This document shows, in pieces, positions 31,711-35,106 of a DNA stretch of 40,364 nucleotides. The notes below the pieces were generated by a model that was not told the DNA's origin, ran no database searches, and worked only from the letters and a program-made list of their open reading frames with translations. The stretch is from a virus (lineage: Duplodnaviria; Heunggongvirae; Uroviricota; Caudoviricetes), in the IMG/VR virus record IMGVR_UViG_2563366860_000007, positions 1-40,364 of that record; one strand, 5' to 3'. Position 1 is the first letter of the stretch, and every line of letters starts with the position of its first letter. A program made the translations under genes and the position numbers.

Positions 31711-31807
31711 ATGCCCTCCAAACTAAGTTTTATTAGATGTTAATTATCAATCTATCTTAGGTCAATAAAAACTAAGATTACTTAGTAATTAAAGAAATGG
31801 TGCTCCT
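31711..31807. promoter_or_regulatory. Divergent immunity-region promoters with operator sites (OR-like)
   Basis: 97-bp intergenic region between cro-like and cI starts with repeated half-sites ACTAAG / CTTAGT: perfect inverted repeat ACTAAGATTACTTAGT at 31771..31786, ACTAAG at 31722, CTTAG at 31756. Confidence 0.6.
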
Positions 31808-32434
31808 ATGGAAACGGTTGGTCAGCGTATAAAAGCTCTGAGAAGAGTTACCAGAACGTCCCAGAAAGAATTGGGTAAATTTTGTGGAGTAAGTGACGTT
31901 GCTGTGGGGTACTGGGAGAAAGACATCAATGTCCCTGGTGGGGAAGCACTTTCAAAATTAGCGAAGTTCTTCAATACGTCAATAGATTACATTCTTTATG
32001 GTGCGGAGTTTGAAGGCAAACTCGTCACAAACATGCGCAGAGTTCCTGTAATCTCGTGGGTTCAGGCTGGGCAGTTTACTGAGTGCAGGACAGCAGAAGT
32101 GTTTAGTGAAGTAGACAAGTGGGTAGATACATCATTAAAGATTGGTGATAACTCATTTGCATTGGAGGTTAAAGGCGACTCCATGACTAACCCTAACGGC
32201 CTCCCAACAATACCAGAAGGCGCAACAGTGATTGTAGATCCTGATGCAGAACCCCGGCATGGAAAAATAGTCATCGCTAGACTTGATGGAACAAACGAAG
32301 CCACAGTAAAAAAATTAGTTATCGATGGCCCTCAAAAGTTTTTAGTGCCATTAAATCCCCGGTACCCCAACATCCCGATCAATGGTAATTGCCTCATCAT
32401 TGGTGTAGTCAAAGGAGTTCAATACGAACTCTAG
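31808..32434 (+). CDS. cI: CI-type prophage repressor (HTH plus S24 LexA-like peptidase domain)
   Basis: N-terminal HTH (QRIKALRRVTRTSQKELGKFCGVSDVAVGYWE) and C-terminal autocleavage domain with GDSM Ser and downstream KK. Confidence 0.9.
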   Translation: METVGQRIKALRRVTRTSQKELGKFCGVSDVAVGYWEKDINVPGGEALSKLAKFFNTSIDYILYGAEFEGKLVTNMRRVPVISWVQAGQFTECRTAEVFSEVDKWVDTSLKIGDNSFALEVKGDSMTNPNGLPTIPEGATVIVDPDAEPRHGKIVIARLDGTNEATVKKLVIDGPQKFLVPLNPRYPNIPINGNCLIIGVVKGVQYEL

Positions 32435-32453
32435 CCCCCCCTTTTCTCTAACC

Positions 32454-32490
32454 AAAACACCGAACTAAGAAAAGTTTGGTGTTTTCTCTT
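32454..32490 (+). terminator. Hairpin plus T-rich tract downstream of cI, flanked by operator-like half-sites
   Basis: AAAACACC-N16-GGTGTTTT followed by CTCTT; ACTAAG half-sites at 32463 and 32500 (same motif as in OR). Confidence 0.35.
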
Positions 32491-32790
32491 GCCATTAAAA
32501 CTAAGTTAAGTTAGATTTTATATCAAAGATAACGAACAGGCAGGACGCCCACGAAGTAGCCGCCTGGGGCATATGAAGTCCAGGATGATTCGTTAGTACC
32601 AAAAAAGCGCCCTACCGGACGCTTCGCTCTTTAAAAATCAGTAACCCTCACTTTGGGCCTGGATCTGGTGGCCTGGGACGAGGTGGAATATGAAAAGGCT
32701 CTATTGGTCGACTCATTATCCAATCCTATTATGTCTCATTTCTTCGGTTTCGGTGGTTTCGGCTTCGGAGGTACATGTCCGTGAACTGGA

Positions 32791-33285
32791 TTATGCTTGT
32801 TGGTCATCATTAATATCCGTTAGTTCATTCTCTAGAGGTAGATCTCCCGCACACCAAGCTATAAATTTTTCTTTGGTTGTTAAATCGTACTTAGTTGGAA
32901 CACCAGCAAAAATACAGGCCCGAATGAAAGCCGCTCGTTCAAGTGATTTCCATGGATTACTATCAGTATCTTGGATTTTTAAATACCTAGCTTGCAACTG
33001 ATCTTCAGGAAGGGTATCAGACTCAATCAGCAGTCTTTTGTAATGCCTCGCTTGCTCTTTAGACATTCCAGCCTCTTGGCCAAACTGATAGACCAACTGA
33101 AGAACCGAAAGTACGGCAACAAACAAACCGAAAATAAATAAATTACTGTACGGGGCGAAAACTGAAAAACCGAGAACGATTAACATCAACGTTATTAATT
33201 TATCAATGCGAGTTAACAACGTGTAATTCATCTTCTCCAATACATAAGAGTAGTGAACATAAAATTTATAATCGTCTCTGGTCAT
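32791..33285 (-). CDS. SieB-like membrane protein (candidate superinfection exclusion / abortive infection), AT-rich moron
   Basis: 164 aa; two adjacent TM helices (LITLMLIVLGFSVFAPY, LFIFGLFVAVLSVLQLVY) then a charged soluble C-terminus; antisense to the flanking early-left genes, as recalled for sieB in the Rac prophage; visibly AT-rich. Confidence 0.5.
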   Translation of the reverse strand: MTRDDYKFYVHYSYVLEKMNYTLLTRIDKLITLMLIVLGFSVFAPYSNLFIFGLFVAVLSVLQLVYQFGQEAGMSKEQARHYKRLLIESDTLPEDQLQARYLKIQDTDSNPWKSLERAAFIRACIFAGVPTKYDLTTKEKFIAWCAGDLPLENELTDINDDQQA

Positions 33286-33670
33286 ATTAGTCTCAGTTTT
33301 CCTTGGGTGGTTTTGGAGGAACTGGAGGCTTTTGTCTTAACGGCACATGCCTCTCCTCATACTTATCTACACATAGATCCATATAAATCCTTATCGTTGT
33401 TGGGGAGGGTTACATAATAACCAAATCCTTGTTGTTGGGGAATAACCAGGTCCACCTCGCCTGATGTGGCTAAAAGCAGGCACATAACAGCTAAGTATTT
33501 TCAACCAGAGAGAATCCTTAGCGTTGTGGTGAATGCGCAGGCTGATGCGCGAAAGACATTGCAGCTATTGCGGAAAAGAGCTGTTCGGCGGGGCAATTAA
33601 ACGCCCGTGAGAGTCTGAAATAACCGCAAGCCGGAGATCAGCACCGGTCACCACAACAGCCACTGCTTTG

Positions 33671-33718
33671 GCGGTACCAGTTTGTACACTTGCTTCCGGC
33701 TGGTACCGCTCTTTTTAC
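33671..33718 (+). terminator. Strong rho-independent terminator upstream of the early-left gene cluster
   Basis: GCGGTACCAG-N19-CTGGTACCGC (10-bp perfect stem) followed by TCTTTTTAC on the plus strand. Confidence 0.5.
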
Positions 33719-33853
33719 AAAACAGAGAAGAGCATCACCGGACGACGGGCTCATAACCCAATCCATCCGGGCGGCTGCCACCGCAGGTGTTCTTCTCTGT
33801 TTTGTGGAGAAACCAACCGACCTTGCAGGGTCGATATGATGAGGAGCAGCAAA

Positions 33854-34216
33854 ATGGCTAGCGAACGCAGTACTGATGTGCAGGCATTTATCGGGGAGCT
33901 GGACGGCGGCGTATTTGAAACCAAAATCGGCGCAGTTCTCAGTGAAGTCGCTTCCGGTGTGATGAACACGAAAACCAAAGGTAAGGTCTCGCTCAACCTG
34001 GAAATCGAACCGTTTGATGAGAACCGTGTGAAAATCAAACACAAACTCTCATATGTTCGCCCGACTAACCGCGGGAAAATTTCTGAAGAAGACACCACCG
34101 AAACGCCGATGTATGTCAATCGCGGTGGTCGCCTGACTATTCTGCAGGAAGACCAGGGACAATTACTGACTCTTGCCGGTGAACCTGACGGAAAACTCCG
34201 CGCAGCAGGTCATTAA
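33854..34216 (+). CDS. YfdP-like hypothetical protein (120 aa)
   Basis: ATG at 33854 preceded by GAGGAG; size and following gene order match recalled CPS-53 yfdP-yfdQ-yfdR-yfdS; the track ORF start at 33668 runs through the terminator and is rejected. Confidence 0.5.
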   Translation: MASERSTDVQAFIGELDGGVFETKIGAVLSEVASGVMNTKTKGKVSLNLEIEPFDENRVKIKHKLSYVRPTNRGKISEEDTTETPMYVNRGGRLTILQEDQGQLLTLAGEPDGKLRAAGH

Positions 34217-34281: not shown

Positions 34282-35106
34282 ATGTCTCAGAACTTAGACG
34301 CAACCGCAATTAATCAAATCCATGCCCTTATTTCTGCTCAGGGTGTTAATGAAATTATCAGTAAGATTGGTGCCGATGCTGTGGCATTGCCTGAGAATTT
34401 CCGCATTCATGATCTGGAAAAATTTAATTTAAATCGCTTCCGTTTCCGTGGTGCGCTTTCCACTGCCAGCATCGATGACTTTACCCGTTATTCTAAAGAT
34501 CTTGCAGATGAAGGCACCCGCTGCTTTATCGATGCTGATAATATGCGTGCCGTCAGTGTGCTTAACCTGGGTACTATTGATGAACCAGGTCACGCAGATA
34601 ACACCGCCACTCTCAAACTGAAAAAGACAGCACCGTTCTCTGCCCTGTTGTCTGTTAACGGCGAGCGTAACTCCCAGAAATCACTGGCAGAATGGATTGA
34701 AGACTGGGCCGACTACCTTGTGGGCTTTGATGCTAATGGTGACGCCATTCAGGCAACAAAAGCGGCTGCGGCAATCCGTAAAATCACGATTGAAGCAAAC
34801 CAGACCGCTGATTTTGAAGATAATGACTTCAGCGGCAAACGCTCCCTGATGGAATCTGTCGAAGCGAAGACCAAAGACATTATGCCAGTGGCATTTGAAT
34901 TTAAATGCGTTCCGTTTGAAGGTCTGAAAGAACGTCCGTTTAAATTACGCCTCAGCATTATCACTGGCGATCGTCCTGTACTGGTTCTGCGCATTATTCA
35001 GCTGGAAGCGGTGCAGGAAGATATGGCTAACGAATTTCGTGATCTGCTTGTTGAGAAATTCAAAGACAGCAAAGTAGAAACCTTTATTGGTACTTTCACC
35101 GCCTGA
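34282..35106 (+). CDS. YfdQ-like protein (DUF2303 family)
   Basis: 274 aa, same length and position as recalled CPS-53 YfdQ. Confidence 0.6.

Follow-up and report, generated by a model that had tools for sequence, protein, structure and literature searches.

The window analyzed here, a stretch of 40,364 nucleotides (nt) covering positions 1 to 40,364 of the IMG/VR record IMGVR_UViG_2563366860_000007, is an E. coli lambdoid prophage of the SfV / SfIV / mEp460 / CPS-53 type. According to our in silico analysis, an antisense gene beside its cI-type repressor, encoding a membrane protein of 164 amino acids (aa) with two transmembrane helices (the 2TM gene), is the center of a conserved cassette of three to four open reading frames (ORFs), the others being proline-rich micro-ORFs. 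On the minus strand the predicted order is a leader, the micro-ORF sORF-U, the putatively coupled 2TM gene, the micro-ORFs sORF-D1 and sORF-D2, and an intrinsic terminator. The cassette is best read as a self-contained "moron" set backwards at the head of the early-left (PL) unit. Our leading interpretation, which we hold tentatively, is that it would form a lysogen-expressed, SieB-analogous module for membrane exclusion or abortive infection, with peptide partners, silenced on prophage induction. Its parts are as follows.

33383..33530, minus strand: conserved non-coding promoter/leader element, upstream of sORF-U
33293..33382, minus strand: sORF-U, 29 aa, MDLCVDKYEERHVPLRQKPPVPPKPPKEN, with its stop 7 nt ahead of the ATG of the 2TM gene
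32791..33285, minus strand: gene of the two-helix inner-membrane protein, 164 aa, intact, ATG start
32736..32810, minus strand: sORF-D1, 24 aa, MMTNKHNPVHGHVPPKPKPPKPKK, out of frame with the 2TM gene, whose 3' end it overlaps
32648..32716, minus strand: sORF-D2, 22 aa, MSRPIEPFHIPPRPRPPDPGPK, with an ATG and a Shine-Dalgarno (SD)-like sequence
32598..32625, minus strand: cassette intrinsic terminator from RNA folding, with a 9-bp stem, a 4-nt loop and U6

The original prediction had described a 164-aa protein with two adjacent transmembrane helices and a charged C-terminal domain, lying in AT-rich DNA on the strand opposite to its flanking genes, and each of these points was borne out. The hydrophobic helices span residues ~30-46 and 50-67 around a 3-residue loop (Kyte-Doolittle 17-mer peaks of 2.18 and 2.69), and the AlphaFold2 (AF2) model shows a helical hairpin (H3-42/H50-88) followed by four short helices, at a predicted local distance difference test (pLDDT) score of 76; the model of a relative reaches 82. 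Segments bearing K/R residues flank the helices on both sides, which suggests that an N-in/C-in topology is likely. The C-terminal domain comprises about 95-97 aa and is acidic, with a net charge of -5. At a GC content of 0.378, compared to a window mean of 0.511 (standard deviation 0.047, 495-nt windows), the ORF is the lowest-GC 495-nt stretch of the 40 kb, and 0.1% of windows are equally low. It ends 357 bp downstream of the cI stop, and cI and the yfdP-like, yfdQ (DUF2303) and yfdR genes are all on the plus strand. The anatomy of the locus therefore stood as first described, except that three small ORFs on the same strand, the cassette terminator and a PL promoter between cI and the gene had been missed; with the micro-ORFs in place, the earlier view of a single-gene exclusion factor had to be given up.

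The gene is conserved well beyond the window. A word-indexed search returned 72 close homologs at 53-98% identity, all from Enterobacterales, and a HMMER scan of 1.84 billion representatives returned 228 clusters at 50% identity, all full length and 150-180 aa long, so that this is a conserved gene rather than a chance ORF. The family covers Gammaproteobacteria and one betaproteobacterium, and its clusters include Gilliamella, Photobacterium, Cobetia, Regiella, Dickeya and Microvirgula. The window protein matches phrog_6315, a family of no known function, over its full length (E 9e-64, residues 1-150 on profile positions 2-151 of 152), and phrog_23697 aligns to residues 74-164. In RefSeq, the identical coding sequence is the "hypothetical protein" WP_001513551.1, found in E. 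coli AR_0013 and 46 other complete genomes.

To describe the micro-ORFs we used 85 loci with a match to the family, namely 65 from IMG/VR, 3 genome loci and the loci fetched earlier. The motif H-x-P-x3-4-[RK]-P-P-x-P was detected in flanking same-strand frames at 78 of them, and loci of Enterobacter, Klebsiella and Pectobacterium present the same micro-ORF arrangement as the window. All four CCN codons are in use at the invariant prolines. Within the motif core, third-position entropy amounts to 1.6 bits in D and 1.4 bits in U, compared to 0.4-0.6 at positions 1 and 2, and residues outside the search pattern follow the same trend (Y, E, Q, P and K in U; P, P and R in D). As third positions are saturated even at residues that the search did not demand, these data show that the micro-ORFs are under protein-level selection on the minus strand. 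A glycine-rich 43-aa ORF on the plus strand (32653..32784; …FFGFGGFGFGGTCP) was considered and rejected: it mirrors the proline codons in antisense, and the wobble pattern agrees with coding on the minus strand.

Translation signals are equally regular. An SD-like sequence precedes the ATG in 48 of 52 distinct micro-ORFs, and 30 of the 33 D-type ORFs, often present in two copies, have their own ATG and SD. The stop of U is located 7-8 nt ahead of the 2TM ATG, inside the SD of the 2TM gene (TGAGGT), or 17-18 nt ahead in one clade, so that U and the membrane protein would be translationally coupled. Measured from the 2TM ATG, the start of D1 is fixed at +465..+478 in all lineages and that of D2 at +545..+576. 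Pectobacterium (P0013) has D1 and the 2TM protein joined in one frame, and in the AF2 model of this fusion the last ten residues have a pLDDT of 76, compared to 49-54 for the linker; this is suggestive, no more, of a D1 tail docking on the membrane protein.

A back-translated motif scan of IMG/VR gave at least 120 matching stretches. Among the matches listed, all 24 motif hits in 2TM-family loci lie in ORFs starting with ATG; the remainder are long proline-rich proteins or short frames in loci lacking the family gene, and an upstream ATG was present in 1 of 32 such short frames. We therefore read the micro-ORFs as specific to the 2TM family. U persists beside family members that are 26-37% identical, in locus L209, Fels-2, Yersinia phage vB_YenM_42.18, Providencia PSTNGR2lys and EKP1, and is annotated as a coding sequence in the records of the last two. 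Only the enterobacterial lambdoid clade has the D peptides. When the literature was searched for the peptide motifs, the protein accession and the PHROG identifier, no report of the peptides and no experimental report of the gene came up. We take the micro-ORF core, [Y/H]-[I/V]-P-x-P-R-P-P-x-P, to resemble apidaecin (YIPQPRPPHP) and oncocin (YLPRPRPP). This likeness to the core motif of proline-rich antimicrobial peptides (apidaecin, oncocin, Bac7) is offered as a lead only. The micro-ORF peptides differ from them in being made by a prophage inside the bacterium, in having no signal peptide or export signal, and in one extra motif residue.

Upstream of sORF-U, the leader contains the following elements.

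33459..33481, minus strand: hairpin GCCTG-N13-CAGGC, in the leader element
33386-33400, 33424-33438 and 33513-33527, minus strand: three copies of the direct repeat ACAAC-N-AAGGATT
33414..33419, minus strand: candidate -10 hexamer TATTAT, between the repeats, found by eye

About 100 nt upstream of sORF-U hardly vary from genus to genus, against differences of 30-45% in the coding parts. The hexamer between the repeats has the form TAnnnT, being TATTAT in the window and TATAAT at the same place in E. coli locus L041 and in Providencia. The hairpin is kept through compensatory changes in loci L083 and L085, Fels-2 and the Yersinia phage. A structured RNA leader was nevertheless rejected: RNAalifold on 22 sequences backed just one 5-bp hairpin with one compensatory pair, and a platform carrying promoter and ribosome binding site is the better reading because the element directly precedes the start codons of unrelated cargo. 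As side observations, each repeat holds GGA, one of which is the SD of sORF-U, and the two repeats nearest sORF-U, TCCCCAACAAC-AAGGAT, co-vary between lineages (e.g., AACAAC to ACAGTC in both), which suggests a common binding factor or gene conversion. From the sequence we also considered a CRP-like site and CsrA sites at the two GGA repeats, and claim neither.

We found the element, as ~112 nt (window 33388-33500, minus strand), in 2182 of 5426 complete E. coli genomes (~40%), far above the carriage of the 2TM gene. In strain 1EC213 (L216:2501-2612) it continues directly into the ATG of an antisense, unrelated cargo gene that belongs to the ECs1072 family. In the K-12 element e14 its 5' half (L217:2501-2550) precedes ymfI, which lies antisense between the cohE (ymfK) repressor and ymfH/xisE/intE. 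The stem sequence of the cassette terminator recurs downstream of the cassette in E. coli locus L041 and Klebsiella locus L008. Since the element stands ahead of unrelated cargo genes, it appears to be a shared expression platform which, with the conserved terminator, brackets a cargo-swap slot beside cI. Two phages with the same cI carry other genes in the slot: vB_EcoS-569R4 has an antisense 144-aa ECs1072-family gene (L002:2896-3330), and mEp460_4F5 a sense 122-aa HTH_17 protein (L003:2713-3081) with a weak match to PADLOC mad1 (5.7e-5).

The orientation of the cassette relative to lytic transcription was examined next to these elements of the window.

31808..32434, plus strand: cI-type repressor, HTH_3 + Peptidase_S24, convergent with the cassette
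32454..32485, plus strand: cI terminator hairpin directly past the cI stop, with a T-run at its end
32489..32517, plus strand: PL-like promoter TTGCCA-17-TAGATT from the promoter scan, directed antisense into the cassette
32500..32515: OL operator-like ACTAAGTTAAGTTAGA, within the PL-like promoter

The repressor matches Pfam S24 at 1.6e-27 and HTH_3 at 3.5e-9, and its terminator has 13-nt inverted-repeat arms that are 92% complementary, with a 6-nt loop. The OL-like sequence ACTAAGTTAAGTTAGA agrees with the OR operators at 31722-31737 and 31771-31786, between cI and cro, and a 31-nt block at the site is 77% identical to OR. We read 32489..32517 as PL/OL, from which the plus-strand transcript would run antisense through the whole cassette. 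A PL-type promoter facing the cassette was found in three genera; as a strong promoter right after the cI terminator, it is TTGACA-16-CATAAT in E. coli locus L041 and TTGACT-16-TAATAT in Klebsiella locus L008. A cI-type repressor lies convergent downstream of the family gene at 73 of the 85 loci, at a median of 384 bp.

The same orientation was observed in other phages. Homologs lie antisense inside the early lytic operon in Fels-2 (186-like) and in the P2-like Yersinia phage, antisense inside the PL operon in Providencia PSTNGR2lys, and antisense between the Q antiterminator and the holin gene in EKP1. The module thus occupies four different slots and is always reversed in a lytic transcription unit, a rule that lambda sieB follows as well. 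Carriers include Escherichia, Klebsiella, Enterobacter, Salmonella, Citrobacter, Pectobacterium, Sodalis and Providencia; the phages are of both the lambdoid and the P2/186-like kind. In Fels-2 (L212, NC_010463.1 30343-30804) neither the family member, intact at 154 aa, nor its sORF-U, MSDSDNFHVLPRPAPAPKPEPGQDKK, is annotated; the record calls STM2733.1 and part of a fil-like gene on the opposite strand, probably a mis-annotation. A ~27%-identical branch of the family, with >1500 sequences (among them L015-L019 and L211), is chromosomally fixed in the Salmonella sopE2 islet, outside any prophage, where it adjoins a DUF1398 gene and sopE2.

The original prediction had placed the gene in the lambdoid slot for exclusion genes and had called it SieB-like. 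The slot was confirmed, lambda sieB itself being antisense inside the PL operon, and the membership was not. The window protein and its 37+70 relatives gave no match to PF14163, while lambda SieB reached 1e-29 on the same library, and an hhalign comparison of lambda SieB with the family alignment A2 gave a probability of 0.5% (E 0.12); SieB membership was rejected on these results. What is shared is the layout: like SieB of lambda and P22, the protein is prophage-encoded, of comparable size (~160-190 aa in SieB), with two N-terminal transmembrane helices and a cytoplasmic C-terminal domain, and its gene is antisense in a lambdoid PL operon, as sieB (34482-35036) is antisense to N within the repressor-controlled early-left operon of lambda. 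Expression in the lysogen is presumed for both. The two are dissimilar at both the sequence and the profile level, no proline-rich micro-ORFs accompany SieB, and an Esc-type internal start is here specific to the window lineage: AGAGG lies five nt upstream of Met74, but the other 36 aligned homologs have L, S, A, V or I at position 74. We consider the shared layout a likeness of design, not evidence of homology. A prophage membrane protein antisense in an early operon is already known from SieB; the family itself is uncharacterized, and its micro-ORF partners are absent from the literature searched.

Other memberships were tested and rejected. For RexB (PF15968), neither the window protein nor its relatives gave a match (lambda RexB control 8.5e-92). 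RexB is likewise a lysogen-expressed membrane protein encoded beside cI and an abortive-infection effector, but it has four transmembrane helices, shares the strand of cI and requires the RexA sensor, whereas the window protein has two helices and the locus no rexA. HEPN (Cthe_2314-like) gave 3+2 weak matches (best 0.0081) with no conserved R-x4-6-H; the conserved segment is SKEQ-x-[RK]-x-Y. No holin family matched, and GiPD474 of Gifsy turned out to be an unrelated ATPase.

Recurrent weak signals point to the SLATT/2TM effectors alone. SLATT proteins are regarded as predicted pore-forming effectors, the trigger of which is an open question. They and the 2TM effectors of the type found in cyclic oligonucleotide-based antiphage signaling systems (CBASS) were reportedly described by Burroughs and colleagues in 2015, and such proteins are also said to be the effector of DRT10 and DRT3. 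The NCBIfam model TIGR04402 matched 27 of 37 members (best 1.7e-4), with 12-17 bits in six individually listed members against a cut-off of 70; SLATT_5 (best 5.1e-4) and SLATT_4 matched a minority. Among Pfam models, SLATT_5 (0.034), SLATT_fungal (0.077) and DUF4231 (0.0095) matched one or two members each; we take DUF4231 and TIGR04402 to belong with SLATT. The only PADLOC families matched by relatives were 2TM/4TM CBASS effectors, SLATT associated with reverse transcriptase (RT) and one candidate family; the CBASS "Effector 2TM" model matched 7 of 70 members (best 7.6e-5) and the RT-associated SLATT models 2+2 of 70. Three relatives carry SLATT names in UniRef. When the structure was searched with Foldseek against viral models, giant-virus SLATT proteins came at ranks 2-5, 7 and 11 (probability about 0.89-0.98, TM-score ~0.5, E 0.15-1). 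Hydropathy and the two AF2 models (pLDDT 76 and 82) agree with a SLATT-type core, a two-helix hairpin with flanking helices.

We therefore call the protein "SLATT-like", homology being unproven; it may be a distant relative. It shares with SLATT/CBASS 2TM effectors the hairpin core with flanking helices, and the weak recurrent profile and fold matches point to them and to no other defense family. It differs in being stand-alone, with matches all under cut-offs, in having proline-rich peptides of 21-48 aa as partners, and in sitting in phage lytic operons rather than defense islands.

Taken together, the favored reading would work as follows. In the lysogen, while cI holds PL silent, the cassette would be on, and the membrane protein would be a latent membrane-perturbing effector that aborts or excludes other phages, by analogy with SieB and the SLATT/2TM effectors. 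The proline-rich peptides would act as its partners, be it as regulators, as antitoxin-like plugs or as setters of the translation level. On prophage induction, strong convergent transcription from PL, antisense through the cassette, would shut it off and so spare the lytic cycle of the carrier phage. We infer the defense or exclusion function from position, orientation and the weak similarity to SLATT/2TM effectors; membrane toxicity, peptide-protein interaction, silencing by PL and lysogen expression are likewise only inferred. In a more specific variant, which we consider doubtful, the proline-rich micro-proteins, with their resemblance to antimicrobial peptides (motif H-x-P-P-x-P-R-P-P-x-P), would sense for or regulate a pore protein, SLATT-like and stand-alone, in a multi-component prophage immunity module that is switched off by the carrier's early promoter reading backwards. 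The peptides could then gate the pore directly, or make its synthesis depend on the state of the translation apparatus via polyproline/EF-P stalling.

Several results weigh against the favored reading. The window protein itself matches nothing in Pfam (at E<=0.1), NCBIfam or PADLOC; no member of the family matches a SLATT-clan model above its curated threshold; two-helix hairpins are easily matched by chance; and structure searches of the PDB returned generic helical matches only. The 5-6 kb around the family gene contain no SMODS, SLOG, RT or cyclase gene in any of the Enterobacter, Klebsiella, Pectobacterium, Salmonella, Fels-2, Yersinia, Providencia and EKP1 loci, so that activation would differ from known SLATT systems. 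On the cassette strand, no sigma-70 promoter passes the scan thresholds in the window, L041 or L008. The Salmonella chromosomal branch of the sopE2 islet keeps the membrane gene without any micro-ORF. Finally, the alternative cargo of the slot (the ECs1072 family and YmfI) has no defense annotation or known function, and the slot is therefore not proven to be a defense hotspot.

The same evidence has to be set against other explanations. That the protein is a lysogenic-conversion product carried in a cargo slot, with a role in host fitness (stress, envelope or host interaction) unrelated to phages, is in our view unlikely. It would agree with the unrelated, uncharacterized cargo that the same promoter/terminator platform bears in 40% of E. 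coli genomes, and with the fixation of a distant branch in a Salmonella virulence islet, but the family is almost confined to temperate phages and is strictly antisense to lytic operons in four phage architectures, as expected of a function that must be off during the carrier's lytic growth. Rather less probable is superinfection exclusion acting as a barrier to DNA entry at the inner membrane, in the manner of P22 SieA, T4 Imm or HK97 gp15, with no killing or arrest of the infected cell. A prophage inner-membrane protein, probably expressed in the lysogen, in this position and antisense orientation would suit it just as well, and the sequence does not distinguish abortive infection from entry exclusion; however, the weak homology favors effector-type 2TM/SLATT proteins over known entry blockers, and a large conserved cytoplasmic domain with cytoplasmic peptide partners would be unexpected.

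A module akin to toxin-antitoxin (TA) addiction or lysis modulation, in which peptides or leader coupling restrain a membrane toxin or holin-like protein for prophage maintenance or lysis timing, seems improbable to us. As in the type I TA system hok/mok, a small upstream ORF ends a few nt before the start of a membrane protein, here within its SD, and an antisense transcript, here that of PL, can oppose expression much like a type I antitoxin RNA; the EKP1 cassette, moreover, adjoins a holin gene. Yet a protein of 150-180 aa with a large soluble domain is unlike type I toxins (<60 aa) and class II holins, and no holin or TA family matched. The other phages examined have the cassette in their early or immunity region, and the lysis genes are on the other strand. 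Compared to hok/mok, the membrane protein has three times the size, the ORF ahead of it encodes a conserved proline-rich peptide and does not overlap the main frame, and no dedicated antisense small RNA gene was found for the cassette (Rfam gave no match). We give the least credence to the micro-ORFs being cis-acting translational elements (polyproline/EF-P stalling leaders) or what is left of a C-terminal tail after a frameshift. PPxPP tracts belong to the classic sites of EF-P-dependent stalling, sORF-U is exactly at the position of a regulatory leader, and D1 overlaps the 3' end of the gene, in frame in Pectobacterium. Against this, conservation extends to His and to flanking non-proline residues (Y, E, Q and K in U; P, N/F and H in D), more than a stalling tract would call for, and the D-type ORFs lie downstream of the main gene, with their own translation signals and often twice.

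If the cassette excludes phages, it would be a compact and widespread addition to the prophage defense repertoire, and one that current defense finders miss, as PADLOC has no match for the window protein. It would also provide a stand-alone SLATT-like effector, the activation of which could be studied without a signaling enzyme. The shared leader and terminator make the slot, with its interchangeable cargo, open to systematic mining across ~40% of complete E. coli genomes, and placement antisense in a lytic operon may be a simple and general route to self-immunity. The conserved and mostly unannotated micro-ORFs of 21-48 aa give a measure of small-protein biology in phage immunity regions.

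Downstream on the PL transcript, outside the cassette, the window contains three further features.

33670-33716, plus strand: strong terminator hairpin with a T-run, ahead of the yfdP-like gene
33712-33809, plus strand: long hairpin of 98 nt, given as context
33854..34216, plus strand: yfdP-like gene, 120 aa in RefSeq

No Rfam family matched positions 32400-33900 at E<=1, and no N-like gene lies between PL and the hairpins. The program's ORF list has a TTG-initiated 182-aa ORF on the plus strand (33668-34216), of which RefSeq keeps the 120-aa yfdP-like portion alone; the additional upstream part, which overlaps the hairpins, is probably non-coding. This region (33670..33809) coincides with an inverted repeat and has a minimum free energy of -77.6 kcal/mol (z -6.6 versus shuffles). 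The two hairpins could be a put-like or other antitermination RNA.

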